Positions 3,046-27,341 of a DNA stretch of 64,000 nt are shown piece after piece. Position numbers and translations under genes: made by a program. The stretch is from a virus (Duplodnaviria > Caudoviricetes), in the IMG/VR virus record IMGVR_UViG_3300028591_000082. One strand, given 5' to 3'. Position 1 is the first letter of the stretch; each line of letters opens with the position of its first letter. Below the pieces are notes generated by a model. It was not told the DNA's origin, made no database searches, and worked only from the letters and a program-made list of their open reading frames with translations.

Positions 3046-3095
3046 ATGTGTATTATACAACTAAAAAATTATTTAAGCATGGTGCAGATACTTTG

Positions 3096-8755: not shown

Positions 8756-8783
8756 TTGCTAATCCTTCTTAATTATTTTTTTA

Positions 8784-10670: not shown

Positions 10671-10674
10671 AAGA

Positions 10675-10935
10675 CTACACCTCCTCTACTTCTAAGCAGT
10701 CTTCTTCAGCAAGCTTGTTAAATTCTTCTTCTGAGATTTCTTCAAGAATATAAGAGATGTGAAGTTCTTCTTCGTCTTCTTGTTCGTCGTCCCAATCAGC
10801 TTCTTCCATAGAGCGATCGTCTGCATGTTCGCAGCAGAAGTCGTCTACTGCGTTATAGTCCTTGTCAGACTTAATGAGATATTCGTTAGTATATCCACAG
10901 TAATTTGCATCTTCTTCTACTTTATAAAACTTCAT
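10675..10935 (-). CDS. Very acidic small protein (DNA-mimic candidate)
   Basis: GGAGG SD; box A promoter; long D/E runs. Confidence 0.7.
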   Translation of the reverse strand: MKFYKVEEDANYCGYTNEYLIKSDKDYNAVDDFCCEHADDRSMEEADWDDEQEDEEELHISYILEEISEEEFNKLAEEDCLEVEEV

Positions 10936-11021
10936 AATTTGCCTCCAGTTATTCCTCATATATATTATACAACAAAAAAAGCACCTTAGCAGGGTGCAAA
11001 AGTTTTAGGAATAATCAATAA

Positions 11022-11279
11022 CTATATCTTCACAGATTTTCTTTTTGACTTAAAATCCTCACATATTTGATAACAAGCATCTCTTACGTCACAGCAGCTA
11101 AACAAATGACCCGATGGTAAATATCCCTCAATTATTTCCTTACCAATCATATCTCGCAGGACAGTTAAGCAAGTTCTAAAATAAATTCTATCATTGAGTG
11201 GACACGTTTCACAATGCAAATCAGGAACTGTAGTTGTCATTTTTAACATTTTAATTATATCGGGTCTTATTTTTTTCAT
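11022..11279 (-). CDS. Cys-rich tagged protein (RKSVKI)
   Basis: CETCPL...C...CC; tag followed by TAG. Confidence 0.75.
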   Translation of the reverse strand: MKKIRPDIIKMLKMTTTVPDLHCETCPLNDRIYFRTCLTVLRDMIGKEIIEGYLPSGHLFSCCDVRDACYQICEDFKSKRKSVKI

Positions 11280-11569
11280 ATTTTTGTATTTCTTGAGAAT
11301 TTGTAATTTTTAACAAAATCATATACTTTTTGGTGTATAGTTGGGCAATGAGTGGTCATATCAATACCAAATATTCTCTGTATTTCACTGCATGGCTTTT
11401 CCCCACCAAGACAACTAATCATTGTATCTTTTTTCTTTCCAATACTTTCAAAGTATTTATGCAGTATACAAGTTTCTCGCATCAAAACCCCATAACCAGT
11501 TCTTCCAATATCTTCATTACAATTCTTTTGTATGCATTTGAATTTAGCTATCACATCATCTTTTTTCAT
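11276..11569 (-). CDS. Cys-rich tagged protein (RNTKI), CILHK subfamily
   Basis: CILHK...C.GG..C...C..IH shared with 12092 and 12382. Confidence 0.8.
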   Translation of the reverse strand: MKKDDVIAKFKCIQKNCNEDIGRTGYGVLMRETCILHKYFESIGKKKDTMISCLGGEKPCSEIQRIFGIDMTTHCPTIHQKVYDFVKNYKFSRNTKI

Positions 11570-11838
11570 ATTTTACATCCAAGCCTGTATTTAGAATGAT
11601 TAACCATATATTTAATTGCAATTACCTGATCTCTACAACCAGTACAGTCTCCCCCAGATTCTTCATATATTTTATCTCCTCCAATCTTCATTATAAATAA
11701 ATAGCATCCAACTTTTGCTCTATTATTTTTTTTAGACATAGGACATTTTTCACATATATGCCCTTCACTTTGATGCTCTTCTACATATTTTAAAGCACTT
11801 TTAAGCGTCATTAAATCTTTTTTACCAATCTTTTTCAT
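11566..11838 (-). CDS. Cys-rich tagged protein (RLGCKI)
   Basis: CEKCPMS..NNR...C..FI...GG; paralogue of 11835. Confidence 0.8.
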   Translation of the reverse strand: MKKIGKKDLMTLKSALKYVEEHQSEGHICEKCPMSKKNNRAKVGCYLFIMKIGGDKIYEESGGDCTGCRDQVIAIKYMVNHSKYRLGCKI

Positions 11839-12095
11839 ATCTTAATACCTCTAGTAGAGTTAGAATATTTAATCATATATTCAATTGCCATATGCTGAGA
11901 ATTATACCCCTTCATTGCCGCTTCATCGCGTATATTCTTTCCTCCCAAGAACTTTATAAATTCTGGGCAAGTCAATCCCACTCTATTATTAGTACTGCTC
12001 ATAGGACAAGTTCTACAATCAGCAAACCCCTTTCCCTCCCAAAGTCTTTTAGCAGTTTTCATAGTAGCCAGATCACTTTTACTAATCCTTTTCAT
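11835..12095 (-). CDS. Cys-rich tagged protein (RGIKI)
   Basis: CRTCPMS..NNR...C. Confidence 0.8.
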   Translation of the reverse strand: MKRISKSDLATMKTAKRLWEGKGFADCRTCPMSSTNNRVGLTCPEFIKFLGGKNIRDEAAMKGYNSQHMAIEYMIKYSNSTRGIKI

Positions 12096-12385
12096 ATTTT
12101 AATACCCCTTAAATGGCAAATTCTATATATTTCTTTATGTATATCAGCACACATAATATATCTATTAAGTCCAAACTCTTCTACTATTTTACCACATATT
12201 TTCCCACCAAGACATTGACTTCCGTGATATTCTTGTTGTAAAGCTTGTTCTAAGAATTTATGCAATATACAAGATTTTCGTATAATAAACCCATTATCAT
12301 CTATTTTAATATTAGGAGAGCATTTTATGCTTTTAAGTTTATTAAACATCTGCCTATAGTTAAGTATTTGTTGATACCCATTCAT
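12092..12385 (-). CDS. Cys-rich tagged protein (RGIKI), CILHK subfamily
   Basis: CILHK...CLGGKIC...MCADIHK. Confidence 0.8.
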   Translation of the reverse strand: MNGYQQILNYRQMFNKLKSIKCSPNIKIDDNGFIIRKSCILHKFLEQALQQEYHGSQCLGGKICGKIVEEFGLNRYIMCADIHKEIYRICHLRGIKI

Positions 12386-12663
12386 ATCTTAGTCTCCCTA
12401 ATACCTCTTTTTATAATATTATATACATTCTTATGTATATCAGCACACATATTAGTTGCTTTTAATCCAAGCATTTTCTGTATGCCTTCACATATATATC
12501 CTCCAACACAATTAGCTCCATAAAACCTTAATGGTGGGTTTACACATAATAAGTACTTATGCAGTATACAGTTATGCCGCCAGTTAACGCCACAAGTATT
12601 AAGATTAGGATTACACTCTTTTCTTACTTTACAAAGTAAGCGTATCATTTCATTATTAGCCAT
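12382..12663 (-). CDS. Cys-rich tagged protein (RETKI), CILHK subfamily
   Basis: CILHK...CVGGYIC...MCADIHK. Confidence 0.8.
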   Translation of the reverse strand: MANNEMIRLLCKVRKECNPNLNTCGVNWRHNCILHKYLLCVNPPLRFYGANCVGGYICEGIQKMLGLKATNMCADIHKNVYNIIKRGIRETKI

Positions 12664-12670
12664 ATTTCCT

Positions 12671-12919
12671 TTATATCCTACAAAATCTATTAATTTTTAT
12701 ATTCATAAATGCATCATAAAACTCTATACAACCACATCCACCACTATACTTTATACCAAGCCTTTTACATAACTGTTCCCGGTGTTCTGCACACCCAATG
12801 CCCTTAAGTCTTCTTATAGATAAATTACTATAAATGGTAATAGGACAGCACCTACAAGCACCAGGAGCATTGTTCTTAGCTAATTCTGCTTGTATTTTCC
12901 TTATCATTCTCTTATCCAT
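12671..12919 (-). CDS. Cys-rich tagged protein (RFCRI)
   Basis: CRCCPI...C...CGC. Confidence 0.75.
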   Translation of the reverse strand: MDKRMIRKIQAELAKNNAPGACRCCPITIYSNLSIRRLKGIGCAEHREQLCKRLGIKYSGGCGCIEFYDAFMNIKINRFCRI

Positions 12920-12975
12920 ACCCTATACCCTCTACATATAAAAATTCAAAAGTAAATATTTATCCTTATAACTAT

Positions 12976-13732: not shown

Positions 13733-13912
13733 ATGGAAGAAGAACTTTTAGAATCGGTTAGACGATTACTAGATAGTGTTTATAGGGATAATATCAGCCG
13801 CAGAATATTTAGAGAATACTCTATGGAAGTGTCGGGAGATACTATTTATTATGTTAGACCATTCTTTGGAAAGAATATAAAACACAAGTGCAGGAAGAAT
13901 TGCAAGATATAA
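13733..13912 (+). CDS. 59-aa tagged protein (MEEELLESV...RKNCKI), below ORF-track cutoff
   Basis: Manual translation; AAGGA SD in the end of the previous gene; followed by a hairpin and T-run. Confidence 0.6.
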   Translation: MEEELLESVRRLLDSVYRDNISRRIFREYSMEVSGDTIYYVRPFFGKNIKHKCRKNCKI

Positions 13913-14048
13913 TCGAATATTTGCGCCAATTAGGCTTTGCGGCCACTGTGGCTTTTTTATTGACAGTGTAATGATAGGAACCCCGTTTCGGGGCAAAAAT
14001 AAAAGCCCCTCGGGCGAACCCAAGAGGCTTCTAGCAATTTTTTTATGA

Positions 14049-14432
14049 TTAAGCAGCAGGCTGAATGCTTACAACCTTACCGAAGTTGATGTAGCGTACA
14101 CCAGTTGTTCCGTTAGGAGTGTTGTCTTCGGTGTAGTTTACAGTGATTGTAGCCTCGCCAATCTTTACGATTGGGAACTGATACTCTTTAGCAAACTTGC
14201 CAGAGCCGCAGATTACAGTAGCGATGTCGCCAACCTTTGCGTCCTTAACAAGAGCCTTACCAGCTTCAATTGCTTCAGCCTTAGCGGCTTCGCGAGCTGC
14301 CTTTGCCTGTTCAGCAAAAGCTTCCTTACCAGCCTTCTTCATTTCCTTGAGGGCGTCGATAGCAGCGTTGATTGAATCGAGGTTGTCAGCCTGAATACCG
14401 ATAGTAGCGAATGTTTCTGGAGTGAATTCCAT
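14049..14432 (-). CDS. Coiled-coil + KOW/SH3-like protein, paralogue 1 of 3
   Basis: VGDIATVICGSGKFAKEY.FPI.KIGEAT.TV.YTE.NTPNGT.GVRYINF.KVV shared with 15842 and 20484; the fold call is inference. Confidence 0.8.
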   Translation of the reverse strand: MEFTPETFATIGIQADNLDSINAAIDALKEMKKAGKEAFAEQAKAAREAAKAEAIEAGKALVKDAKVGDIATVICGSGKFAKEYQFPIVKIGEATITVNYTEDNTPNGTTGVRYINFGKVVSIQPAA

Positions 14433-14444
14433 AATTTTGTCCTA

Positions 14445-14512
14445 CCTAAGTAAACTTAGGATTTTGATTAAATTTGTTGTTCTTACGAACTTTTTTGAGG
14501 AGCAACGCTCCC
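14445..14512 (-). promoter_or_regulatory. Conserved 5' leader of the KOW-like paralogues (also 16276-16327 and 20923-20975)
   Basis: Identical CCTAAG-TTTA-CTTAGG hairpin abutting the SD in all three; 5' hairpin GGAGC-GTT-GCTCC vs GGGTC-GTT-GACCC covaries. Confidence 0.75.
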
Positions 14513-14564
14513 TTACTCTTATATTATACACCGCAAATCCTAACAGAACAGGGTGCATATTTTT

Positions 14565-14960
14565 TTGGTCTTGCGACCGTTTGCAGCTTCGAAACCTCTC
14601 TGAGAAGGGGGCAGAACCCAGCCCACAAATTGGGCTTCAATCTCATAAAAGATTTCTGACTGCGACATTCCTTGCAGGAGTTGCACCGTGCATTTCTTGC
14701 CTGAGAAGCAATCGTCCTAGCTGTTAGACGAAAGGAACATAAAAGGTGCGAAGGTTTCGCATTCGCTTGCGGAGCTCACCTTGACCCGATGGGGAGTGGG
14801 GTTTTGTTGTCGCACAATCACTAAGGCGTTGCTCTTTTTTCGAATGGATGTAAGCAATAGCCACAAATTCGCAAAAGTAGGTAAGGGTTAGATCACGCAC
14901 ACTATCTAAAGTGCATCTTCTAGTGGGAGAGGGAATTTCTTCGTATTCCTATCGTTCCTT
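14565..14960 (-). ncRNA. ORF-less box A transcription unit: structured leader, tRNA-like gene, 3' hairpins
   Basis: Promoter 14969-15003; 5' GTAAGG pairs with CCTTAC; ends GGTC-GCAA-GACC. Confidence 0.55.
14666..14738 (-). tRNA. tRNA-Glu(CTC)-like gene with atypical T arm
   Basis: GTTCCTT/AAGGAAT acceptor, Glu-type D arm TC-GTCT...AGGAC, TTGC-TT-CTC-AG-GCAA anticodon arm; T loop TGCAACT with a bulged stem; no encoded CCA. Confidence 0.65.
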
Positions 14961-15011
14961 ACTCTTATATTATATCACGAAACTTTTAATTCAGCAGGGT
15001 GCAGAATTTTT

Positions 15012-15105
15012 TGGTCTCGCGAAAGAACGGGGGATTTTTGTGAGGTGAACTTTGTAACCGATCTGCTCATTTGGAAAAGCAGAACGATCAATCTCCCGTT
15101 CCTTA
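15012..15105 (-). ncRNA. About 95-nt ORF-less RNA closed by a terminal stem
   Basis: Promoter 15113-15147; 5' AAGGAACGGGAGATT pairs with 3' AATCCCCGTTCTTT; internal TCTGCT/AGCAGA hairpin. Confidence 0.55.
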
Positions 15106-15154
15106 TACTAATATTATACACCGTAAACCTGAAGTCAGCAGGGTGCATAATTTT

Positions 15155-15267
15155 TAGGGTTCGGCAGCAAATTCTTCTTGGACATGCGAGCCATAAAACT
15201 CTATACCAAGGTTCCGCCACTCTTATATCTCTTTCGAGGGAAGTTCGACCTTCCTTTGCTGCCTTAC
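15155..15267 (-). ncRNA. About 110-nt ORF-less RNA closed by a terminal stem
   Basis: Promoter 15274-15308; GGCAGCAAA pairs with TTTGCTGCC; internal GGAAG/CTTCC and CTC-GAAA-GAG hairpins. Confidence 0.5.
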
Positions 15268-15327
15268 ACTAATATTATACCACGCAAAAGTGAACTGGGC
15301 AGGGTGTAAAATTTTTTGGTTTTTTTA

Positions 15328-15465
15328 TTGACTTAAAATCGATCTTAAGTTATACTGTGAGTACACTTGAATAAATTCGGATTTTCCGAATATTTAAGTA
15401 CAAACATATACAACACCAAAATCCGACTTTTTCGCGAGGTTGATCTTCGCGAGGAAGTCGGTGCT
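15328..15465 (+). ncRNA. Candidate sigma70-driven plus-strand small RNA
   Basis: TTGACT(15328)-17-TATACT(15351); two long hairpins, ATTCGGA/TCCGAAT and CCGACTT..TCGCGA/TCGCGA..AAGTCGG. Confidence 0.4.
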
Positions 15466-15553
15466 GCTGCCTATAGTGTAATGATAGGAACAACGGTTTT
15501 GTCAAGGTGGGCAGGGTGCAAAAGTGTGAGTACATGAGTTTTTTCAAATACAT

Positions 15554-15749
15554 GTCGACTTTTTACAAAAAGTCGACTATTTACATAGTGTAGGCTTCGA
15601 AGCCGTTTTGGTTTCAAAATCAGACATATGTATAGTATACTAGAATACTACTATACATATGTAGTGTAATGATTTGAATAACTATATTATATCATAAGGT
15701 TTGGTTAAGCAGGGTGCAATACAAATACACTATACATATGTATAGTGTA
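15554..15749. repeat. Cluster of DNA palindromes
   Basis: GTCGACTTTTT-AC-AAAAAGTCGAC at 15554-15577; ACATATGTATAGTA...TACTATACATATGT at 15624-15662; perfect 24-bp TACACTATACATATGTATAGTGTA at 15726-15749. Confidence 0.8.
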
Positions 15750-15841
15750 ATGATAGGAGCCCCGCAATAAAAAAGGCTAGGTGGCTTTCGCCGACCTAGT
15801 CGATTTATTTTAGGAGTGTCTGCCCTTTCGGGCAGGGTGCA

Positions 15842-16258
15842 TTACTGTGCGTCTACTCCGACAACCTTACCGAAGTTGATGTAGCGAACACCTACTGTGC
15901 CATTCGGTGTGTTATCTTCGGTGTAGCGAACAGTAATTGTTGCTTCGCCGATTTTTTCGATAGGGAACTTGTATTCCTTTGCGAACTTTCCACTACCACA
16001 GATAACTGTAGCAATGTCGCCGACTTTTGCGTTTTTGAGCAAAACCTTTCCGTTTTCAACGGCTTCGGCATTTTTTGCTTCGCGGGCAGCCTTCTGCTGT
16101 TCTGCGAACATTTCCTTTCCCGATTTCTTCAACTGACGGAGAACTTCCATAGTTGCGTCGAGTTCGTCAAGATTTATGAAATCCTTTGAGATTCCGATTG
16201 TTGCGAGTTTTTCTGTCTGAGCAGCCAAAAGTGATGGAGAAAAAGTTTTGTTAGCCAT
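15842..16258 (-). CDS. Coiled-coil + KOW/SH3-like protein, paralogue 2 of 3
   Basis: C-terminal about 60 aa nearly identical to 14049 and 20484; same leader. Confidence 0.8.
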   Translation of the reverse strand: MANKTFSPSLLAAQTEKLATIGISKDFINLDELDATMEVLRQLKKSGKEMFAEQQKAAREAKNAEAVENGKVLLKNAKVGDIATVICGSGKFAKEYKFPIEKIGEATITVRYTEDNTPNGTVGVRYINFGKVVGVDAQ

Positions 16259-16664
16259 AATGGTAATTTCCTTTGCCTAAGTAAACTTAGGACTTTTATT
16301 AGATTTTTTGTTCGGGTCAACGACCCTTGATGTCTTTATTCTACAACCCGAACTCTGACAGAGCAGGGTGCAGATTTTTGTTTTTTCTGCAAGGCAGAAA
16401 CTTTTTATTTTTCTGCCCTACGCCTATATTATAACATTTTGAACTTGGTTTAGCAGGGTGCAAATTGAATTATCTTTTGCAATTCACTCACCCTTCCTTC
16501 CCTAGTAATGTCAAAGAACTGTAGGCTCTTGTTCGTGCCTTACTCCTATATTATAGCAAGTGAAATTGATTTGAGCAGGGTGCAAATTGTCTACAGGATC
16601 TTTTTGATCTGAGCAGGGTGCAGCGGCTGCGGGGGTGTAATGATATGAACAACGAAAGGAAATC

Positions 16665-17011
16665 CCCTAGGGGCACTTAGACCCACTAGGGAACTTCTAA
16701 AATCACTTCCTATGGTGAAGGCATGTCTGCGACTAGGAAACCCTCTACATCATTTTATAAGTTTTTCTCACCGAAAACTAGAGAACCCGTAGTGAAACTT
16801 AAAAGGGGCTCGCAATTGTTTTATTAGTTTCCTATAGTTGAACTCTCAAAGCAACGAGCGTGCAAAGTAAAACTGCATGGATAATTTATGGATAATCACT
16901 ATGCTCAAAACCCACTTTACCCTAAAGTGTAAGCTGACACCAATCTTCCCTGTGTCAGTAGGGTAAGGACTCGAACCACTTTTATTAGTGGGGTACCTCA
17001 TCGTTCCTTAC
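16665..17011 (-). ncRNA. About 340-nt ORF-less structured RNA
   Basis: Promoter 17018-17052; starts GTAAGGAACGAT like the 14960 unit; GGTTCGAGTCC T-loop-like motif; stems CTGACAC/GTGTCAG, CACTTTA/TAAAGTG, GCTCG/CGAGC; terminal CCCTAG/CTAGGG hairpin. Confidence 0.55.
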
Positions 17012-17125
17012 ACCATTATTATAGCAAGGTTATTCCAATTAAGCAGGGTGCAATTCTACTAATGTGTTATGATTTGAATAACGAAAAAAAGCCCACTATA
17101 CGAAAGTATAGTGGGCAGAGGTGAT

Positions 17126-17710
17126 TTATACTATTGTGTATGAAGTCCAATCATTGTTTTTCCTTATTTCTTCAATAGGAATAACTGTGAAACTGTAGTC
17201 AGGCCCCTCATCTTCGACATTTTCATCTTCATCTTCGCCATAGCCCATACTGTCATACCAAGATTGAGCACAGTCGCCAATGTAATCCAATATTTCTTTT
17301 TTAGTATATTCTGCAGGAAAAGCATAGGATTCAATTTCGTCGTGACAATCGTATGAGGAACTATAAGTTGCCTCGATATACTGAAGTTTATTGTCAAGAT
17401 ATTTTCGCAATTCCTTTTCATGTTCTTTTGTGAACTTGAGCATAAACTGAACAACTTTGACAAGAGCAGGAGTAAAAGAATCAAATTGATAATTCTTAAA
17501 CTTTTCAAGGAACTTATCAACAAACCCTGCTCGCATACTTGAATAATTACAATGTTCCAAGCCCTCGACCAATTCATCGTATTTTTTGCCAAAACTGATA
17601 TAAGTGTTTAAATCCTGAACTTCACGCTCAAATTGAGCACAACCGATTCTGTCAGCAAATACAATATCTATACCACAAACATCTGAAACATACTTTGTTA
17701 TTTCTTTCAT
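17126..17710 (-). CDS. Hypothetical protein with acidic C-terminal domain
   Basis: Box A promoter, GAGGTG SD, followed by a GCCCACTATAC hairpin with T-run. Confidence 0.8.
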   Translation of the reverse strand: MKEITKYVSDVCGIDIVFADRIGCAQFEREVQDLNTYISFGKKYDELVEGLEHCNYSSMRAGFVDKFLEKFKNYQFDSFTPALVKVVQFMLKFTKEHEKELRKYLDNKLQYIEATYSSSYDCHDEIESYAFPAEYTKKEILDYIGDCAQSWYDSMGYGEDEDENVEDEGPDYSFTVIPIEEIRKNNDWTSYTIV

Positions 17711-17767
17711 ATCATCACCTCACGCTTTTATTGTAACCCACTCGGCAGAGCCGAGCAGGGTGCAGAT

Positions 17768-18058
17768 TTAACATTCACGCACTAATCGATCTTCGGCTTT
17801 ATATTCCAACTGATCGATTTGAGCCTGCGTTAATTCTACATTGTACTTTGTTTCGTACAGGGTGCAGAAATCCTCAAAACACTCTTGAAAAGAATAGTAT
17901 CTTTCCTTTTTCAAAAATGTTTTTTTGGTAATATCACTGTAAACACCTATACAATAAATGCCTTTATACATATAAAGCATAACTGTTTGCATACCTATAA
18001 CAAAACGGAAATCGACACTGTCATCGTTGACGATAATTTCTTTTGAAGCCTTCCACAT
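17768..18058 (-). CDS. Hypothetical cassette protein (starts MWKASKE)
   Basis: Box A promoter, GAGGTG SD. Confidence 0.75.
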   Translation of the reverse strand: MWKASKEIIVNDDSVDFRFVIGMQTVMLYMYKGIYCIGVYSDITKKTFLKKERYYSFQECFEDFCTLYETKYNVELTQAQIDQLEYKAEDRLVREC

Positions 18059-18178
18059 CTTTATCACCTCGCACCAACAGTATAACAAGATCAATCTGAT
18101 TGAGCAGGGTGCAACACTGCCACTGTGTTATAATTTGAACACCACTTTTTCAAGTGGTAGGGGCTTTCGCCCCTAGAC

Positions 18179-18583
18179 TTAGGCAACCAAGGCTACCTGC
18201 AACCTACTTGCTACATAGGCTACAGCCCACCTAGAAGATTCGCCATTTTGGTTTTTACATACGATAGGGTATGTTCGGGCACGATTATTCCAGTCAAGAA
18301 TACGCCAGGTATTCCCCTTTTCATCACGCCATTTTAAGCCGATGACTACTTTAGGAACATCACGATAATAACACCATAAAGCGTCATGAATTTTGGCATT
18401 TGCGAAATCGTCGATTTTAAGAGAGCCGTCGGTATTTTTTTCGACAGTTTCAATAGTAATCTTCAAGCCAGTATCTGAATAAGTAATACGAGATCTAGAC
18501 ATCTCATTATTAAACTCAGCCAATAAACCACTAAGCATAGAATCAAGTCTAGCATGGAAAACTTTACAAGTTGATTTATCCAT
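18179..18583 (-). CDS. Hypothetical cassette protein, ends ALVA
   Basis: Box A promoter, GAGGTG SD. Confidence 0.8.
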   Translation of the reverse strand: MDKSTCKVFHARLDSMLSGLLAEFNNEMSRSRITYSDTGLKITIETVEKNTDGSLKIDDFANAKIHDALWCYYRDVPKVVIGLKWRDEKGNTWRILDWNNRARTYPIVCKNQNGESSRWAVAYVASRLQVALVA

Positions 18584-18710
18584 TTTATCACCTCACATCT
18601 TTATTATAATCTGCTCGGACTAACCGAGCAGGGTGCAGCACCACAACTGTGTTGTAATTTGAATACCGCAAATAAGAGCACCACCCTTTCGGGTGGTGTA
18701 GAGTGTGATG

Positions 18711-18992
18711 TTATGCGGTCATTAAAGATACTTCTCCGAGTGGAGAATGCACCCGTCTATGGCAGTTCGCACAAAGGCACACAAAGTTGTTTATATCGTT
18801 TTTACCACTTACTGCAAGTGGAACGATATGGTGGAGTTCAATGACATATTTGTCTCTTTCTCCACAAATCTGACATTCATACCCAAGACGCTCTTTAATT
18901 CGTCTAATGGTTGCCATTTTAGGTCTATCTCGTTTTATCGGAAAGTGATGGCAAATACGCTCGTACTCGCTCATTTTGTGTCCTTTCTTCAT
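18711..18992 (-). CDS. Small HNH endonuclease
   Basis: CQICG...ELHHIVP...G.N..NNFVCLCANCHRRVH. Confidence 0.85.
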   Translation of the reverse strand: MKKGHKMSEYERICHHFPIKRDRPKMATIRRIKERLGYECQICGERDKYVIELHHIVPLAVSGKNDINNFVCLCANCHRRVHSPLGEVSLMTA

Positions 18993-19066
18993 AAACTTGC
19001 CCCCTTAGTTTATTATGTCTTATGCCCTTATTATACTCGGCTAGCACTAGCCGAGCAGGGTGCAGA

Positions 19067-19198
19067 TTAGAACAGAGCCGAATGTCTTTTCTTAATCCAC
19101 GAATGTATTTCTGTTACTGCAAGATAGATTGTAAGCACTACAAGAGCAGGTACTGCCACGAGTGTTTCTACTGAAAACTGATTAAGCCACTGTATCAT
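19067..19198 (-). CDS. 43-aa single-pass membrane peptide
   Basis: Manual translation MIQWLNQFSVETLVAVPALVVLTIYLAV...; box A promoter and GAGGTG SD. Confidence 0.65.
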   Translation of the reverse strand: MIQWLNQFSVETLVAVPALVVLTIYLAVTEIHSWIKKRHSALF

Positions 19199-19253
19199 TT
19201 TATCACCTCACGACTATAGTATACCCCATTCGCACTAGGCGAACAGGGTGCAA

Positions 19254-19427
19254 TTAACAGATACTACTCCAAGAAGTATAGTAAGAACAAAAGCCAAGAG
19301 CATTTAATCCCATACAGATTTCTCTTGCATCCCAACGAGCCAAATCTTTTGCAACAAGTCTTTCAACACCATTCTCTCTGATGTAGACATTACTAAGAAG
19401 TTGCCAATGAAGTTTCTCTTTGTACAT
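19254..19427 (-). CDS. 57-aa cassette protein (MYKEKLHWQ...)
   Basis: Manual translation; box A promoter and AAGGAGG SD. Confidence 0.65.
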   Translation of the reverse strand: MYKEKLHWQLLSNVYIRENGVERLVAKDLARWDAREICMGLNALGFCSYYTSWSSIC

Positions 19428-19548
19428 ACTGTCCTCCTTACGCCTTTATTATAGCAATCATTGATTGATTGAGCAGGGTGCAACGCTGCAGCAATGTAGT
19501 AATACCAACCCCGCCCTTTCGGGTGGTGGGGCTTTCGCCCCTAGCGGA

Positions 19549-20007
19549 TTATTCAGTAGCGTATTTGATAAACTCATCATAGAGATTATGCTTTGCAAGG
19601 AAATCAAAAAGATAACAACTACCAACATAATCTTGTAAGGCTTCGTCGATTGCATTTTTTATACTATCGTTGCCATTTTCAATAAGTGTTTCAAGTTCTT
19701 TTTGAGTAAAATCTGTAATACTTGCAGAAACATGAACATTATCATCGATTGCTTCAACTAAAGCCCTTAAATCTTCATTGTTGTCAAATTCAACATCGTC
19801 CAAGAAAGTAATACCATCAATAGATTGTACAAGTTCAATGGCTAATCTTTCGCCATAGTCATTTGCATACTCTCCAAGATACCCGTAGTACTGACCACAG
19901 TCATCGCAAAAATACAATTTTTTGGCAATATCTAATTCATGGTCTTTAATCTGTTGCTTTTCCCAATCTTCAAGACCACAGAATGCTTTTGTTGTTTTTG
20001 TTTTCAT
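19549..20007 (-). CDS. Acidic cassette protein with CxxC
   Basis: Box A promoter, GAGGTG SD. Confidence 0.8.
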   Translation of the reverse strand: MKTKTTKAFCGLEDWEKQQIKDHELDIAKKLYFCDDCGQYYGYLGEYANDYGERLAIELVQSIDGITFLDDVEFDNNEDLRALVEAIDDNVHVSASITDFTQKELETLIENGNDSIKNAIDEALQDYVGSCYLFDFLAKHNLYDEFIKYATE

Positions 20008-20099
20008 ATCATCACCTCACGCTTTTATTATAACAAAGTTTGACTGATTAAACAGGGTGCAACGCTCACCCCGATGTAGTAATACCAACACCGCAAATA

Positions 20100-20350
20100 A
20101 AAAACCCTAGGGGTTATCCCCTAGGGGTAACTACCTACCTATACCATAGGTATTTCGGTAGGCAATCGGTAGACTCTTGCTAACATTAGAGCACGAGAAA
20201 TGCGAGTGGATTAAAGTGGCTACCCGTTCACTCGATTGTTTTCTTTAAGCCCTCGACCAACCTTGAATACGAGGGGCTATTGTCGTGCAAGCAGACGGAG
20301 GGTTTGTTACGCCATAGCCCACAACTACGTGAGGCTTTCGCCTCATTACA
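20100..20350 (-). ncRNA. About 250-nt ORF-less multi-hairpin RNA
   Basis: Promoter 20356-20390; GAGGC-GAAA-GCCTC, GGGCTAT/ATAGCCC, CCTCG/CGAGG, CGAGTG/CACTCG and CTACC/GGTAG stems; terminal CCCTAGGGG hairpin plus T-run. Confidence 0.55.
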
Positions 20351-20483
20351 TCTGTATTATACTATACTCCCATAATGAGAGCAGGGTGCAACACTACTTG
20401 GTGTAGTAATACCAACCCCGAGGTCGGCTCGGCAGAAAACCCGAGAGCCGACTTCTATTCCCACCCTTTCGGGTGGGGGCAGA

Positions 20484-20906
20484 TTATTCTGCCTTTTCTA
20501 CGCCAACAACCTTTGAGAAGTTGATGTAGCGAACACCTGTTGTTCCGTTAGGGGTATTACCCTCTGTGTATTCTACGGTAACAGTTGCTTCACCGATTTT
20601 TACGATAGGGAACTTGTATTCCTTAGCAAACTTGCCCGAACCACAGATAACGGTTACGATGTCGCCAACATTTGCTCCCTTAAGCAGAGCCTTACCATTT
20701 TCGATATTTTCGGCTTTCTGAGCCTCTCTCTGAGCCTTAGCCTGTTCTGCGAGAGATTCCTTAGCAGAAGTCTTGATTTTGCGGATTTCGTCGATAGCAC
20801 AGTCGAGCAAATCCTTATCAACACATTCAGCGTTGATACCCATAGCATTAAGACCATTTGCAACTTTTGCAACCAATTCAGAAGAAAAAACTTTCTTAGC
20901 GTTCAT
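20484..20906 (-). CDS. Coiled-coil + KOW/SH3-like protein, paralogue 3 of 3
   Basis: Same C-terminal domain and leader as 14049 and 15842. Confidence 0.8.
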   Translation of the reverse strand: MNAKKVFSSELVAKVANGLNAMGINAECVDKDLLDCAIDEIRKIKTSAKESLAEQAKAQREAQKAENIENGKALLKGANVGDIVTVICGSGKFAKEYKFPIVKIGEATVTVEYTEGNTPNGTTGVRYINFSKVVGVEKAE

Positions 20907-21205
20907 AAGACACTCCGTTTTGCCTAAGTAAACTTAGGACTTTTATTAGATTTTGTTTTGAGGAGCAACGCTCCCTTATGCCTTTATTGTACTCCGTTCG
21001 ACCTAGCCGAGCAGGGTGCAAGTTTTAGCCTTTTCCATAGAGTGAGGGGCGAACCCTCACTCAGCCATAAGACTGTTTCTCACTGCCTTACACCATTATT
21101 ATAGCAAGGTTTATAGACTTAAGCAGGGTGCAACTCGGCAGAGCCAGACCCTGGTGTAGTGATAGCAACCCCGCCCCCGACCCTTTCGGGTCGGTGTATA
21201 CTTTA

Positions 21206-21382
21206 TTAAACAAACATTCTGATTAGTTCATTAGCGAGTAAGAGTTTTTTCTTTTTGTCGCTATCCAAGATTTTTTTGTCAGAAACACTTTTAATTAAAG
21301 CACGAGCAATTGTAAGTTTCTGACTGTCGGTAATTGTATTGCCCAAGTCGGCAATAAGTTCAAGCAATTCGTCGTCGTTCAT
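21206..21382 (-). CDS. Small helical cassette protein
   Basis: Box A promoter, AAGGAG SD. Confidence 0.65.
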   Translation of the reverse strand: MNDDELLELIADLGNTITDSQKLTIARALIKSVSDKKILDSDKKKKLLLANELIRMFV

Positions 21383-21392
21383 ACGCAACTCC

Positions 21393-21599
21393 TTATGGCT
21401 TTATTATAATGCCCTTGCCACTATCGAGCAGGGTGCAACTCTCACCAACTTTCCTTATGACTTCAAAAGGAAGTACCATATTATCGCCAACGAAAGCAAC
21501 CCTTTTATCGCTACTGAAGGAAGTGATTATGCCTACAGATACAGTAGCCAAACTTTTATAAATGATTCTGTCGCCAACATTAAGTTTTTCGATAACCAT
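21393..21599 (-). CDS. Small beta-barrel-like cassette protein (VGDRIIY...)
   Basis: Box A promoter, AGGGGG SD; reads through the next promoter. Confidence 0.55.
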   Translation of the reverse strand: MVIEKLNVGDRIIYKSLATVSVGIITSFSSDKRVAFVGDNMVLPFEVIRKVGESCTLLDSGKGIIIKP

Positions 21600-21721
21600 A
21601 TCTGACCCCCTTACGCCTTTATTATACGCCAATCAATCGAGCCAAGCAGGGTGCAACTCCAACGACTGTGTTGTAATTCGAACACCGAAACTCACCGAGC
21701 GAACTCGGTGAGCAAGAGATG

Positions 21722-21925
21722 TTATGTGTTTATGTGTAAGTGATTTGCAATAGTGTTCTTACCCTTAATTTTAGCCTTATGGTATTCATAGCAAACCTTT
21801 GCTACATTTACCCCTATCATAAAAATGGCAGAAACAATTTTAATCGGTGTATTACCGAGTACCATTCCAACAAAAGAAATAGTCCTTACGAGTGTAGATA
21901 CAGATTCGATATAAAACTTTTCCAT
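21722..21925 (-). CDS. Small membrane cassette protein
   Basis: Box A promoter, GAGGTG SD, hydrophobic core. Confidence 0.65.
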   Translation of the reverse strand: MEKFYIESVSTLVRTISFVGMVLGNTPIKIVSAIFMIGVNVAKVCYEYHKAKIKGKNTIANHLHINT

Positions 21926-22015
21926 TTTATCACCTCACACCCATAGTATAACAAGGCTTGACTGATTGAGCAGGGTGCAAGTCGGCAACTGTGTTGTAAT
22001 TCGAACACCGAAAAT

Positions 22016-22303
22016 AAAAAAACTCACCACCCCCTGAGAGCAACGCCTGCTCTTGTGGAGATGGTGAGTGTAACTCAATACCCTTTTATTTTCGCCAAAA
22101 GGGTGAAAAGAACTCGGCGGTATTAGGCTCGCGAATGCCCACATCAACTGCAATAGTGATACTTTCCATTAAAGACAGAAACTTTTAATCTACTATGGCT
22201 TTCTACGATACCACTAACGGTAATCAAGGTCGTCAGATTACATGACGGATTTTGTAAGTGTTTTCTCACATAGACTGTCTATAGGAGGCTTTCACTCCCT
22301 TAT
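22016..22303 (-). ncRNA. About 285-nt ORF-less structured RNA with intrinsic terminator
   Basis: Promoter 22310-22344; GGAG/CTCC, CGTCA/TGACG and ACCCTTTT/AAAAGGGT stems; CTCACCA/TGGTGAG plus T7. Confidence 0.5.
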
Positions 22304-22345
22304 GCTTTTATTATACCCCATTCGTACTAGGCGAACAGGGTGCAA

Positions 22346-22531
22346 CTATGCTACAAGTTCCACATAGTCAATTACTTTTATGCAATAAACATCTGCCCTA
22401 GAAATCTTCTTGCCAAGTTTCTTAGACATCTTTTCAATATAGAAGGGCAACTTCATTTCGACATCTTCCTTAGAAGCGTTGTCGACAAGCACACATTCGC
22501 CCAACCAACTTCTTAAAATTATAGCAACCAT
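22346..22531 (-). CDS. Cassette protein, ends ELVA
   Basis: Box A promoter, AGGGGG SD; stop abuts the next box A. Confidence 0.7.
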   Translation of the reverse strand: MVAIILRSWLGECVLVDNASKEDVEMKLPFYIEKMSKKLGKKISRADVYCIKVIDYVELVA

Positions 22532-22651
22532 ATCTTGCCCCCTTACGCCTTTATTATAGCAAGGTTATTCAAACAGAGCAGGGTGCAACTCTACTACTGT
22601 GTTATAATTTGAATACCGTTTTGGAACGGTAGGGGCTTTCGCCCCTAGTCT

Positions 22652-22942
22652 CTAGTCGCTATCTTCAAGTCTTGTAAGATAGTCGTATTCTTTTAATTCC
22701 TTTTCAGTTGCAAACTGATACAGTTCGTCGTCGCGTATTGCAATAAAGAAAGGATTTTCTCTTTCAAAAAACTTGTAAAGAACATCAAGAGCATTTTTCT
22801 TACACTTCATTTCTTCAAGTTCTGATTCTGCAAATAAACCACCAACGCAAGTGTTCATTCTCAAATCATTCTCGTCGTTTATACTCCAACCCAAAAGGTA
22901 AGTAAGTTCACAAAAGAACTGTTTCTTTTCCAAATCAACCAT
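22652..22942 (-). CDS. Acidic cassette protein
   Basis: Box A promoter, GAGGTG SD. Confidence 0.7.
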   Translation of the reverse strand: MVDLEKKQFFCELTYLLGWSINDENDLRMNTCVGGLFAESELEEMKCKKNALDVLYKFFERENPFFIAIRDDELYQFATEKELKEYDYLTRLEDSD

Positions 22943-23053
22943 AACCACACCTCTTGCCCTAAGTATACTCCACTCACACCACCAAAACAGGGTGCAACAC
23001 CAACTATTGTGTTATAATTTGAATAGCGTAGGTGGGGCGTCTGCCCCTTTTAC

Positions 23054-23302
23054 CTATGCAACTTTTATATTGCGTACAATGAAATTGTTTTTCTTTTCTT
23101 TTTTGATAATCTTTATAAGACTAATTGAATTGATAACCAAGCAAGAGCCATTCATAAAAATCATACTAGGTAAGCCAAGCACGATAGCATAAACCAAGAA
23201 CATAATTCCACTTACTATTGCGATAGTACGGAAAATTTTCTGATTCTTTACACAGTATGTAACCAACACCAAGCAACTTGCAATAGTACTTAAAACTTCC
23301 AT
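23054..23302 (-). CDS. Small three-TM membrane protein, YgjV-like
   Basis: Hydrophobic pattern with K..R.I...FLVYA...N; family call is from memory. Confidence 0.6.
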   Translation of the reverse strand: MEVLSTIASCLVLVTYCVKNQKIFRTIAIVSGIMFLVYAIVLGLPSMIFMNGSCLVINSISLIKIIKKEKKNNFIVRNIKVA

Positions 23303-23357
23303 AACATCACCTCACGACAACAGTATACTATGCTCTCACTAGGAGAGCAGGGTGCAA

Positions 23358-23576
23358 CTATGCTACAAACTTGCAAACATCTACTGTCTTATATAAGTCG
23401 CATACTTTTTTTGACTTCAAATCTTTACAAAGTTTTTTGGCATACTGTCTTGCTTTTCTTTTAGAAGAAAAGTGTATTGCATTAGAGGGTCTGCCAACAA
23501 GAAAGCCACCGTTATCATAGTACATACGACCGTCCCAAGATTTTACTCCGACCAAATAATACTTGACTCTTTTCAT
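23358..23576 (-). CDS. Basic cassette protein, ends KFVA
   Basis: Box A promoter, GAGGTG SD. Confidence 0.7.
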   Translation of the reverse strand: MKRVKYYLVGVKSWDGRMYYDNGGFLVGRPSNAIHFSSKRKARQYAKKLCKDLKSKKVCDLYKTVDVCKFVA

Positions 23577-23704
23577 ACGCACCTCTTACCCATATTATAA
23601 CAACCATTGATCGATCGAGCAGGGTGCAACGCTGCCACTGTGTTGTAATTTGAATAACGAGTTGAGGGACAGATTGGCTCTGCCCCTTGTTCTATATCAC
23701 AGCG

Positions 23705-23845
23705 TTATCTCCACAGTAATGTTTCAGGGTTGTCTGCAATCTTTTTTGCCGAACCCTCGATTGCTTTATCCATATCATAGGTCTTAGCCTTGATAGCCTT
23801 CTTCAATGCGACAACTCTTCTGTGTCGCTCTGCTATTGTAATCAT
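23705..23845 (-). CDS. 46-aa FlgM-like (anti-sigma28) peptide, below ORF-track cutoff
   Basis: MITIAERHRRVVALKKAIKAKTYDMDKAIEGSAKKIADNPETLLWR; own box A promoter, AAGGAG SD and downstream hairpin; resembles the FlgM C-terminal consensus. Confidence 0.55.
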   Translation of the reverse strand: MITIAERHRRVVALKKAIKAKTYDMDKAIEGSAKKIADNPETLLWR

Positions 23846-23901
23846 AAGCAACTCCTTATGCCTATACTATACTCCCCCTAGGTTGAGGGAGCAGGGTGCA
23901 G

Positions 23902-24231
23902 TTAAAGCGTTATCTCTTTAAGAAGTTCAATAGATGATTTATCCTTGTACTTCTTTTCGTAGTAATACTTCCACTCTGCGAAGTAATAAAAACCATCTGA
24001 AGTGTTATTAGTATAGCAAGGCATTTTTAAGATGACTGCTTCTTTGAAACTATCATCATCGTTTTCAAAAGCCTTAAAGATTTCTGCATAAGCTCTGACA
24101 TTTTCCTCTGCTTCTTTGGCGGTGTCAAAGTTTTCATCAGCAATATTAAATGCTCGGTCTGTAAACTCGTTATAAATAATGTTATCCAAAACCTTAAAAG
24201 CATTATCGCTAAGCGTTATAGTTTTTTCCAT
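23902..24231 (-). CDS. Cassette protein (starts MEKTITLS)
   Basis: Box A promoter at 24250-24284. Confidence 0.7.
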   Translation of the reverse strand: MEKTITLSDNAFKVLDNIIYNEFTDRAFNIADENFDTAKEAEENVRAYAEIFKAFENDDDSFKEAVILKMPCYTNNTSDGFYYFAEWKYYYEKKYKDKSSIELLKEITL

Positions 24232-24287
24232 ATCATCATCTCTGACTAGAGTATAGTAACCCCACTGTGTGAGAGCAGGGTGCAAGA

Positions 24288-24500
24288 TTAGAAGAGTTCC
24301 ATAATGATAGATCCATTATCATCACCATAGCACTGTGGATTATTACAGTACCATTCATATTCTTCCCATGTTGGTTCTGTGCCTTTTTTGAAACACATCA
24401 TTTCATACTCTGCCCATGTGAAACAATCTTCATACTGTTCCTCTGCAAAGCAAGAACAACCAACCAATAACAAAGCAAGTATTAAAATAATCTTTCTCAT
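24288..24500 (-). CDS. Small exported acidic protein with signal peptide, leaderless
   Basis: MRKIILILALLLVGCSCFA; ATG 6 nt past the -10. Confidence 0.65.
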   Translation of the reverse strand: MRKIILILALLLVGCSCFAEEQYEDCFTWAEYEMMCFKKGTEPTWEEYEWYCNNPQCYGDDNGSIIMELF

Positions 24501-24640
24501 AGCCATAGTATATACAGTGGTGTATATACAAACAGGGTGCAGACTCCACCACCTGAGTTTGATTATGCACCCTGCTATAGCACCTCAATCTTTGTATAAT
24601 AAAGTTGTGAGGTGATAATATGAAGAAGTTCTAATTTGTT

Positions 24641-24961
24641 CCTGGCAGGGTATGTATATATACAGTACCCTGTGGGATAGGTGCCCCCGCATCTTCCAAC
24701 GCCGAAAGGCTTAAAAAGTTTATGCAGGGGGTGGGTAAAAAACTCCTGGCAGGGTTTACTATACATATATATAGTACTATGGTATGCCCCCACGCACTCT
24801 CCAATTGTATAAGGCTAAATGCCTACACAAAGAGCTAGTAAAAAGTTCCTGGCAGGGTTTCCACTATATAATGGTATGTGTATATAGTGCCCTCCGCTAT
24901 TCCTCCCCTCAAACTGCCATAAAAGGCTATAAAAAGGTATAGTGTTTTACTCCTGGCAGGG
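24641..24961. repeat. About 104-bp degenerate tandem repeat anchored by CCTGGCAGGGT
   Basis: Anchors at 24641, 24745, 24848, 24952; each unit has a TATA-rich palindrome, TGCCC(C/T)C and AAGGCT. Confidence 0.8.
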
Positions 24962-24962
24962 T

Positions 24963-25337
24963 TTATATATGTATATTCCTTTTAAAGAAGTGGCTTTCTA
25001 CCCAATCAGAAGTAGGATACTCGCATCTTTTACAACTATAATCACAAAGGTCTTCATAGCGTTCCTTATTGTATAAATTAGGGAGCTTAAGCTTTGTTCC
25101 TATCACCTTCCATATTGCAGTACATGAATACCTGGTTCCTAAGGTCTTGGCAAGTAAGTGAAATCTAATTCTACCGTCTTGGTTTAATAGCCAGAAGTAT
25201 TGGTGTGCTACACAGCCCTTACAGTGCTCGTCTTCTACTTTACTAAAAATTGGTTCATCATATTTAGCTATTTCTTTATTGTTGGCTTTTTTAATTGCCT
25301 GTTTTAAGATACTAATATTTAATATTTTATCTATCAT
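24963..25337 (-). CDS. Cys-rich tagged protein (RNIHI), paralogue of 25670
   Basis: EHCKGC.A..YFWLL...GR...LGT...CTA.WK.I. Confidence 0.8.
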   Translation of the reverse strand: MIDKILNISILKQAIKKANNKEIAKYDEPIFSKVEDEHCKGCVAHQYFWLLNQDGRIRFHLLAKTLGTRYSCTAIWKVIGTKLKLPNLYNKERYEDLCDYSCKRCEYPTSDWVESHFFKRNIHI

Positions 25338-25355
25338 TATTACTCCTGGCAGGGT

Positions 25356-25652
25356 TTATATATGTATGGTACGGTTACAGTGCTGTAGTTTTGCCAGTAT
25401 ATAATCTGAGCGTTGTGGAGGTGCACATAATATTGTGTTATAATTTGTTCCATACTGATAATTTAAACATTCTCTAATATCAATACAACTTATAAGGTAA
25501 GTGGTAAGTTCTTTACTTACTATATCTAATAGTTTACTTATATAACATCCATCGCAGTAGCAACTTGCTTCTTTTCCTTTTACCTGCTCTATGGATTTAA
25601 GTATTTGTTTTTTTGTTATATTAATATTTGATCTATCCACTATAGATGGCAT
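25356..25652 (-). CDS. Cys-rich tagged protein (RTIHI)
   Basis: CDGCYI...C...YGT.Y...C; start at the linker ATG. Confidence 0.75.
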   Translation of the reverse strand: MPSIVDRSNINITKKQILKSIEQVKGKEASCYCDGCYISKLLDIVSKELTTYLISCIDIRECLNYQYGTNYNTILCAPPQRSDYILAKLQHCNRTIHI

Positions 25653-25669
25653 AATTACTCCTGGCAGGG

Positions 25670-26053
25670 TTATATATGTATAGTTTTTCTTACAGAAACT
25701 AAAGATTCTACTCTTTTTGGATTTGGATAAAGGCAAAAGTTTCTTGGCTCTTCATCGTATTCATCTTCATCTTCAAGATCTTCAAATGTACTTCTGTCAT
25801 ATATATGAGTACCATATTTAATATCAATCAATTTCCATACTGCAGTACATGCGAATTTAGTTCCAAGTTCAGCAGCATTCGACCATAAATCACTTCTGCC
25901 ATTTCTATCTAAAAGCCAGAAATAATAATAAGCAGTACATCCTTTGCAATGTTCTTGTTCTCTTTGCATTGAAAGTCTGGCTTCTTTGTTACCTTCTCTT
26001 TTTCTGGCACTTTCAATTGCTTTCTTTAATTTATGTAAATCAATTTTATGCAT
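25670..26053 (-). CDS. Cys-rich tagged protein (KTIHI)
   Basis: Paralogue of 24963. Confidence 0.8.
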   Translation of the reverse strand: MHKIDLHKLKKAIESARKREGNKEARLSMQREQEHCKGCTAYYYFWLLDRNGRSDLWSNAAELGTKFACTAVWKLIDIKYGTHIYDRSTFEDLEDEDEYDEEPRNFCLYPNPKRVESLVSVRKTIHI

Positions 26054-26062
26054 TTGCCTTTC

Positions 26063-26368: not shown

Positions 26369-26386
26369 AATTACTCCTGGCAGGGT

Positions 26387-26662: not shown

Positions 26663-26670
26663 TGCTTCTC

Positions 26671-26997: not shown

Positions 26998-27001
26998 TTC
27001 C

Positions 27002-27322: not shown

Positions 27323-27341
27323 AATTTATTCCTGGCAAGGT

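Follow-up and report, generated by a model that had tools for sequence, protein, structure and literature searches.

Predicted RNA genes, including a tRNA-Glu, among the cassettes of a promoter-bounded early region in an uncultured T4-like gut phage

Hypervariable early regions of phages are usually taken to be collections of small-protein genes, with the gaps between them left unannotated. What promoter-led intervals without an open reading frame might encode is a question raised by the early-gene region of an uncultured, large (~222-kb), T4-like gut phage, from which a 64,000-nt stretch (hereafter the window) was analysed. An earlier note had read nine such intervals as an early-expressed library of decoy or regulatory RNAs, most of them starting with RTAAGG and some ending in terminators. 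The terminase of this phage shares about 25-28% identity with T4-like phage records; similar DNA was not found among INPHARED phages, and the GTDB genomes searched gave no match. The intervals lie within one array:

13900-24600, minus strand: early-type cassette array, about 33 copies of a box, 20 nt and a -10 hexamer

The box, TGCACCCTG, occurs in 39 exact copies in the window, where 0.12 would be expected and no shuffle gave more than 2; most copies are followed by 20 nt, often palindromic, then by a TATAAT-like hexamer, 6 nt, and RTAAGG or GTGAGG. From this fixed spacing, and from the Shine-Dalgarno (SD) sequence and ATG that follow in coding cassettes, we infer that box and hexamer form a promoter; each copy in the array would drive one small ORF or one ORF-less unit, a PeSL-like layout. 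The box was rejected as a sigma70 -35 element (a sigma70 scan gave 29 sites against 25.6 expected), and IMG/VR matches to the promoter pattern and to the leader palindrome of the protein genes listed below, being single and isolated, were taken as chance. The RTAAGG start is present as the earlier note had described, but it belongs to the promoter consensus and is the SD of coding cassettes; since it starts those as well, it is not specific to RNA units.

Promoter-early stem-loop (PeSL) cassettes of the T4-like phages RB49, phi1, PST and nt-1, in the portions of PMC2839356 and PMC4122927 drawn on here, likewise combine dense, repeated early promoters with stem-loops, some of them between upstream element and -10; each promoter precedes an ORFan in a hypervariable region, and exchange takes place at the repeats. 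In contrast, the upstream element here is a 9-bp box 20 nt 5' of the -10 rather than a sigma70 -35, a second box follows the terminators, and RNA genes, which those portions do not describe, appear among the cargo. The array seems to work like PeSL, yet it is not classed as PeSL because it has no sigma70 consensus.

The bodies of the nine units were delimited from the predicted +1 to the next box, all start sites being predictions: 14558-14962, 15004-15106 and 15148-15267 (box with one mismatch); 16373-16421, 16463-16543 and 16623-17011; and 20062-20349, 21021-21091 and 21980-22303. The intervals are real and lie on the minus strand throughout; in coding neighbours the SD, immediately 5' of the ATG, has an energy of about -9 to -12 kcal/mol, and no SD-led ORF of this kind occurs in any of the nine. 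In all six frames, translation gave matches to nothing but the same chance ORFs where these recur in near-identical copies; the units resemble no protein cassette, and beyond common terminator and box motifs no unit has a long antisense match elsewhere in the window. They can be sorted into three kinds, namely a tRNA cassette, terminator-ended long RNAs and short terminator-less units (21980-22303 is unverified). The array also contains spacers of 34 nt, a tandem box at 16576-16622, and the following block:

15309-15841, strand not assigned: palindrome-rich block, boxes without a proper -10

Two tested segments of this block fold equally well or better on the plus strand, so that a DNA element is more likely here than RNA genes.

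The first kind is represented by a tRNA gene inside 14558-14962, which the earlier reader had overlooked:

14558-14962, minus strand: ORF-less cassette N15, with a leader of about 224 nt, tRNA-Glu, and a structured trailer of about 100 nt
14666-14738, minus strand: tRNA-Glu(CUC), Rfam RF00005, 40.7 bits (gathering score 29)

The same tRNA in relatives scores 44.6-51.2 bits with RF00005, and ARAGORN detects the copy in one relative (L083) only. Besides the CUC anticodon, the tRNA bears U2-A71, U11-A24, U13-G22, A46, no base 47, and G73, which make up the identity set of bacterial tRNA-Glu; CCA is not encoded. In the alignment, the window copy differs from its relatives by G18A plus U55G, double changes occur in the anticodon stem, and positions 18 and 55 change together, a coupling read from the alignment only, as we found no paper on A18 together with G55. 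On sequence grounds, N15 is a tRNA-Glu(CUC) precursor under selection. It has no terminator, and its promoter box lies at 14995-15003. With phage tRNA genes (RF00005) it shares the cloverleaf, the CUC anticodon, the Glu identity elements and covariation; it differs from them in standing alone, in a cassette of 405 nt that supplies an early promoter and a structured leader and trailer, and by A18 with G55 and one bulged base in the T-stem. A tRNA pattern search of IMG/VR gave no match.

The terminator-ended units comprise two families with homologs and one singleton:

16655-17011, minus strand: long RNA family N6, about 355 nt, terminator-ended, multi-domain, accessory
20098-20349, minus strand: long RNA family N4, about 250 nt, terminator at 20105-20126
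22016-22303, minus strand (body 21980-22303): ORF-less unit N2, terminator-ended

Terminators were thus found in three units (20062 and 21980 by terminator scan; in 16623 a conserved long stem is followed by a tail rich in U and C) and in none of the other six. With terminators removed, the long units were not distinct from coding controls in folding energy (controls, z +1.0 to -2.2; the halves of 16623, -1.2 and +0.8; 20062, -2.2; 21980, -0.8). Covariation, which the earlier note had proposed as a check, was found in N6, N4 and the short unit N3, on a base of 7-10 related sequences (49-100% identical) that represent few independent lineages. The N6 core, terminator omitted, has 23 pairs, 98.8% paired, of which 8 changed on both sides; slid controls gave 41-56%, and the shuffle count (0/500) is not to be read as a probability, since the helices were chosen by eye after viewing the alignment. 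Most double changes trace to a single deep split that separates L015 and L021 from the others. N4, also without its terminator, has 32 pairs, 96% paired, with 8 changed on both sides, and contains a nearly invariant 35-nt core. Paired columns showed G-U in 26 cases and A-C in 2, a count biased by minus-strand folding. N6 contains two repeated modules, each a stem plus an A-rich loop; its model finds weak matches (28-32 bits) in L017 and L033. Neither family matches Rfam, and a search of IMG/VR with the N4 core gave no match. By this comparison, N6 and N4 are structured non-coding RNAs selected for minus-strand pairing, carried as accessory cassettes with their own predicted promoter and terminator.

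Translated micro-ORFs could in principle account for the units: N6 has an ATG ten bases past +1 in most homologs and a 51-codon ORF at 16846-17001, and N15 has a 12-codon ORF (SD energy -7.4) overlapping the tRNA. The spacing from SD to ATG is probably too short, however, and the longest ORF varies among homologs from 26 to 51 codons in N6 and from 16 to 38 in N4, in differing frames, whereas the sequence changes track base pairs; with no ORF shared among the homologs of N6, N4 or N3, this explanation is highly improbable.

The remaining five units (N3, N8, N9, N13 and N14) measure 49-120 nt, have no terminator by terminator scan, and lie directly upstream of three paralogous barrel-protein genes, three of the five in fixed position:

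15004-15106, minus strand: N14, one long closed stem-loop
15148-15267, minus strand: N13, multibranch fold with a 5'-3' closing stem
16373-16421, minus strand: N9, 49 nt, one 5' hairpin plus an A-tract
16463-16543, minus strand: N8, 81 nt, weak fold, sequence-conserved 25-nt core
21021-21091, minus strand: N3, 71 nt, two hairpins, covariation
20484-20906, minus strand: barrel protein copy 1, 140 aa, invariant leader palindrome at 20923-20938
15842-16258, minus strand: barrel protein copy 2, 138 aa, leader palindrome at 16276-16291
14049-14432, minus strand: barrel protein copy 3, 127 aa, leader palindrome at 14445-14460

A terminator at 14000-14033, past copy 3, closes the array. Folding z-scores are -3.7 for 15004, -3.1 for 15148, -5.6 for 16373 and -3.0 for 21021 (for comparison, -4.8 for the 3' part of 14558), and merely -1.1 for 16463; N3 covaries in 15 pairs, 97% paired, 5 of them changed on both sides. 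N3 always stands immediately 5' of barrel copy 1, and N9 is always the last unit before copy 2. N14 occurs in near-identical relatives only, L083 having a 439-nt tRNA-Glu cassette instead, and in the L009 clade the N13 slot is filled by a unit of 85 nt whose 5' and 3' stem words are those of N13. Because these units lack terminators and lead into barrel genes, they may be leader parts of barrel mRNAs, and we give an even chance to their being mainly stacked promoters with 5' hairpins that raise barrel-gene output: the first stem would hide the SD-like 5' hexamer and shield the 5' end. The barrel genes use ATC in 24/30 cases against 2/44 in the polymerase; such C-ending codons are typical of strong expression. 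N13 and N14, with their closed stems, may be excised as small RNAs too. N8, present in 11/11 genomes covering its slot, conserves sequence and not structure, which a plain leader hairpin leaves unexplained.

The cassette map of 14 genomes or contigs separates fixed from mobile units. N6 is present in seven and missing from its slot in five; N4 follows barrel copy 1 in the window and precedes it in six others, occurs twice in L021, and is absent from the examined stretches of L033 and L090. In L083 and L084, neighbouring slots carry tRNA-Glu and tRNA-Ala cassettes. N3 and N8+N9, by contrast, stand 5' of barrel copies 1 and 2 in every case, including a clade with a different box. Indels and replacements among relatives end at promoter repeats, and the long RNA cassettes are gained, lost, moved or duplicated whole. 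With near-identical promoter elements on both flanks, cassettes would be gained, lost and swapped at promoter boundaries, each bringing its own early promoter. A PeSL-type hyperplastic early region of this sort, with RNA genes among its cargo, is the reading we consider probable.

Recombination at promoter repeats might also leave empty cassettes or decayed genes that have no RNA function; PeSL recombination excises and shuffles cassettes (PMC2839356), and the 34-nt spacers and the tandem box could be such remnants. N2 is a further case, a singleton without homolog or excess structure (MAFFT aligned it with N4, but the N4 model does not match it, and the kinship was dropped). For N2 and the spacers alone this account is plausible; for the units at large it is very unlikely, given the covariation in N3, N4 and N6, the intact tRNA, the fixation of N3, N8 and N9 across two clades, and the lack of any likeness to protein cassettes.

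The functional part of the earlier claim was that the units are independent trans-acting decoys against host defence, mimicking CRISPR repeats, antitoxins or tRNAs. Each unit lies in an early accessory region behind a promoter of its own, one contains a tRNA, N13 and N14 have 5'-3' closing stems of the kind expected of excisable RNAs, and RNAs of this type are known, the Racr anti-CRISPRs directly following their promoter in phage accessory regions (PMC10651486). Across the window and six relatives, however, no Rfam CRISPR-repeat, antitoxin or sRNA family reached threshold (the comparison covered the Rfam families); stem sequences vary freely, unlike a sequence mimic; and no acr gene was identified nearby. 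A ToxI-like antitoxin, with tandem ~36-nt pseudoknot repeats, found no Rfam match, nor was such a repeat among the families listed. GAG, the codon read by the tRNA, is rare in the phage genes checked, and the short units have no terminators, N3, N8 and N9 being tied to barrel genes rather than mobile. We therefore regard it as unlikely that all nine units are decoys of this kind. What does stand is that several units are RNA genes moved like small-protein cassettes, as indicated by the tRNA, the covariation in two long families and one short one, the lack of a conserved micro-ORF, and the cassette-wise turnover.

Apart from RF00005 in N15, no unit matched Rfam at gathering score. Weak matches (His leader, anti-hemB, L10 leader, sroB, ARRPOF) fell below it and, where aligned, were driven by terminators or palindromic hairpins; hammerhead, T-box and kink-turn likenesses were weighed by eye and dropped. 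The large phage RNAs ROOL and GOLLD (bioRxiv 10.1101/2024.12.08.627333) and the lncRNAs and terminal-repeat sncRNAs of phage K (PMC9241854) are comparable as structured RNAs encoded in early regions or close to tRNAs, in part under early promoters of their own; the units here differ in having no Rfam match, and no pseudoknots were established in them. Their 250-405 nt contrast with GOLLD, often over 800 nt, and the ROOL and GOLLD covariance models gave no match at gathering score or in E-value scans.

The barrel proteins themselves might bind both the RNAs encoded next to them and the hairpin of their own leader, with N6 as a titrating RNA in a CsrA/CsrB-like or chaperone-like module. All ORF-less clusters but N2 adjoin a barrel gene, and a composite motif, A-rich plus TAAGTT, occurs in the three leaders and in every scanned N6 homolog. 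Copy 1 is predicted to fold as a long helix plus a five-strand barrel of the SH3/KOW/Tudor/Sm group, which contains RNA binders; with small beta-barrel proteins (KOW of NusG/Spt5, Tudor, Sm/LSm/Hfq) it shares the five strands and a KOW-like Gly-Asp/Gly-x-Gly turn, differing by the long N-terminal helix and by the lack of a Pfam or clear structural assignment. Fold matches are tied (VIA-align, Z 5.3-6.8, among Tudor, chromo, KOW, integrase and LSm domains), and the best Foldseek matches (Sm/Gemin/MscS) have E 0.014-0.07. No Pfam model reached threshold with the barrel family, Phage_ProQ_C_like (E 0.13, 2 of 27) being no more than a lead; the family comprises 35 clusters, none named, atlas matches outside it stay <0.9, and IMG/VR held no encoded relative. 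Against the module, the motif was defined post hoc, three of its four sites belong to paralogs, and in a looser form it matches at eight further places in the window; N6 is dispensable whereas the barrel proteins are not; and the leader palindrome could be a DNA operator. We rate the module as rather improbable.

Returning to the PeSL-type region, N6 and N4 would be made early and act in trans. Because conservation in N6 falls on loops borne by covarying stems, a role as decoy or scaffold for a protein is favoured over antisense action, tentatively and at somewhat less than an even chance. The nearly invariant, partly unpaired C/U-rich stretch of N4 may equally well be an antisense seed or a protein site. 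It is quite doubtful that the whole forms an early RNA-protein system, in which paralogous barrel proteins, each following a fixed group of small RNAs of its own, bind swappable decoys and scaffolds (N6, N4 and the tRNA cassettes) exchanged among phages much as a library of anti-defence proteins would be.

The locus is best described as a known cassette system with apparently new RNA families as cargo: promoter-bounded shuffling here carries RNA genes too, a tRNA and two families without Rfam match. If the short units are merely stacked promoters, what remains is two or three new RNA motifs within a single phage clade. Since start and end are predicted for each RNA and its presence varies among close phages, direct cloning and assay are possible; RNAs of the N6 and N4 type are ready candidates for the question of what phage non-coding RNAs do, and the three barrel proteins of an unnamed family may be their partners.

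All nine ORF-less intervals described in the earlier note were located in the window, and an SD-led ORF comparable to those of neighbouring cassettes was absent from every unit; their homologs share no conserved micro-ORF, and no protein-cassette remnant was found in any of the nine. The observation is confirmed, and its interpretation as an RNA counterpart of the small-protein cassettes is partly supported: a tRNA, selected pairing in three units (N6, N4, N3) and cassette-wise exchange speak for it, whereas the decoy role stays a proposal. A cassette map across related phages sorts the units into three kinds: a tRNA cassette, long accessory RNAs, and short units.

ORF-less units and related cassettes (window coordinates unless a related contig is named)
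14666-14738, minus, tRNA with CUC anticodon (Rfam, 40.7 bits)
17011-16655, minus, long RNA family N6
20349-20098, minus, long RNA family N4
22303-22016, minus, N2, promoter-to-terminator layout as in N6 and N4
21021-21091, 16463-16543, 16373-16421, 15148-15267 and 15004-15106, minus, short units N3, N8, N9, N13 and N14
L083:436-874, alternative 439-nt cassette ending in a second tRNA-Glu(CUC)
L084:1-280, 3' end of one tRNA, and tRNA-Ala(UGC)
L012:5730-5952, L081:599-835 and L030:1574-1810, copies of N16, a further ORF-less family

The window is part of a contig of 222,619 bp from an uncultured phage encoding DnaB helicase, primase, PolIII-type polymerase, UvsX-like recombinase, portal and a large terminase with ~25-28% identity to T4-like phage records; no cultured relative was found at the DNA level among INPHARED phages. 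Syntenic regions of related phages, reached by homolog search with the barrel protein encoded in the array, were drawn from assembled metagenomes, one of them with the label pig gut, and one clade uses another promoter box.

A 9-bp box occurs 39 times in the window (0.12 copies expected), 38 times on the minus strand; downstream of most copies a TATAAT-like hexamer lies beyond a 20-nt, often palindromic spacer, and a further 6 nt on stands RTAAGG or GTGAGG. Because this start hexamer is the SD in coding cassettes, with the ATG ~13 nt past +1, the box-plus-hexamer element is, on sequence grounds, very likely a promoter; for the same reason the RTAAGG start, present as the earlier note stated, is not particular to RNA units. 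In promoter-early stem-loop (PeSL) arrays of T4-like phages, repeats of promoter and stem-loop, the latter possibly between -35 and -10, delimit exchangeable ORFan cassettes (PMC2839356; PMC4122927). The likeness to these arrays is close, but the element in the window does not fit a sigma70 -35/-10 pair, an identity ruled out by a sigma70 promoter scan. A second conserved box (~17-21 bp), likely a protein-binding site, follows most terminators (13960-23660), sitting 9-13 nt ahead of the promoter box where a block begins. The far boundary of the array (24600-25360, minus) carries about six copies of a different repeat that shares the CCCTG core, also found in L009, L010 and L012, and a predicted divergent plus-strand promoter at 24566.

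The tRNA was undetected by ARAGORN and overlooked in the earlier note; it bears the bacterial Glu identity elements. Among its relatives, pairs of the anticodon stem are changed on both sides, and the alignment shows a tRNA-Glu kept under selection; in the window copy G18 and U55, partners in the tRNA tertiary pair, are both altered relative to relatives. Since one relative (L083) has another tRNA-Glu in a differing cassette in the adjoining slot and a second (L084) a tRNA-Ala upstream, RNA genes do fill cassette slots. GAG is rare among the phage genes checked, so the tRNA is not a simple match to phage codon use. A second tRNA-like gene (4865-4936, minus; Rfam, 35.1 bits), with an anticodon loop reading UAU (Ile), an atypical base 33 and a poor fold, is possibly degenerate.

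N6 occurs in seven distinct versions; in its 3' core, terminator excluded, 23 hand-picked pairs are 98.8% paired (slid controls, 41-56%). Eight of these pairs in N6 and 8 of 32 in N4 (96% paired, with a near-invariant 35-nt core) are altered on both sides, changes that come from few lineages and, in N6, mostly from one deep split. With N3, which retains two hairpins (5 of 15 pairs altered on both sides), the covariation proposed as a check in the earlier note shows pairing evidently under selection, while folding energies of the long units were not better than those of coding controls. G-U occurs in 26 paired columns and A-C in 2, a count biased in that the minus strand was the one folded; such tolerance of G-U but not of A-C favours RNA of the minus strand rather than cruciforms in the DNA. 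Between relatives, each family comes and goes as an entire cassette, N4 additionally relocating and duplicating; the repeated promoter-like element and whole-cassette exchange are both shown at the sequence level. Neither N6 nor N4 matched Rfam, with no CRISPR-repeat, antitoxin or sRNA model scoring at threshold; the candidate unit N2 had no homolog and no excess structure. N16 (223-237 nt, terminator-ended), absent from the window, likewise had no Rfam match. The different-box clade, represented by L033, carries ORF-less cassettes particular to it, measuring 231 nt (1974-2204; a weak match to the N6 model, 28 bits) and 177 nt (2917-3093). Precedents include ROOL and GOLLD near tRNA islands (10.1101/2024.12.08.627333), whose Rfam models gave no hit, the lncRNAs and terminal-repeat sncRNAs of phage K (PMC9241854), and the Racrs (PMC10651486); membership of the units in these classes is not claimed.

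In both clades the units immediately ahead of barrel-gene copies 1 and 2 are invariably N3, N8 and N9, and copy 3 is preceded by N13 and N14 or by unrelated 85-nt units; a terminator scan found none in these five short units. N9 retains a single hairpin of varying sequence, N8 a 25-nt sequence with slight structure, and in the barrel genes' own leaders a hairpin at the start covers an SD-like hexamer. The simplest reading would be stacked promoters with protective 5' stems; the conserved N8 word and the closed folds of N13 and N14 would also allow for excised small RNAs.

The three barrel paralogs (~63-65% identity; a more distant fourth lies elsewhere on the contig) have codon use suggesting strong expression and a predicted fold of a long helix and five-strand barrel (pLDDT 88; domain 86). 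Foldseek ranked Sm/LSm, Gemin and MscS first (E 0.014 or worse), and VIA-align tied chromo, Tudor, KOW, integrase and LSm domains (Z 5.3-6.8); RNA binding is possible on these models. A motif common to the three leaders and N6 was defined post hoc and is a lead only. An invariant 16-bp palindrome in all three leaders (14445-14460, 16276-16291, 20923-20938), and likewise in relatives, may act as a hairpin in the RNA or as an operator in the DNA, perhaps for autoregulation.

Elsewhere in the window, a palindrome block (15309-15841), retained in relatives, has boxes without a proper -10 and two segments folding equally well on either strand; it may be a DNA element, for instance an origin or a signal for the genome end. 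The minus strand also encodes a 93-aa HNH protein (18711-18992; Pfam PF01844) present in nearly all relatives, a 68-aa protein resembling another small KOW-type barrel (21393-21599), and runs of Cys-rich small proteins of 80-125 aa (7900-12920 and 24960-27900), many sharing a similar basic-x-hydrophobic-x-Ile tail.

We infer that the units would be transcribed early, that N6 and N4 would act in trans, with protein binding favoured for N6, and that the short units would stack promoters. Judged from sequence comparison, the array is a variant form of a known cassette system, and its cargo includes a single tRNA along with two or more RNA families not described before.
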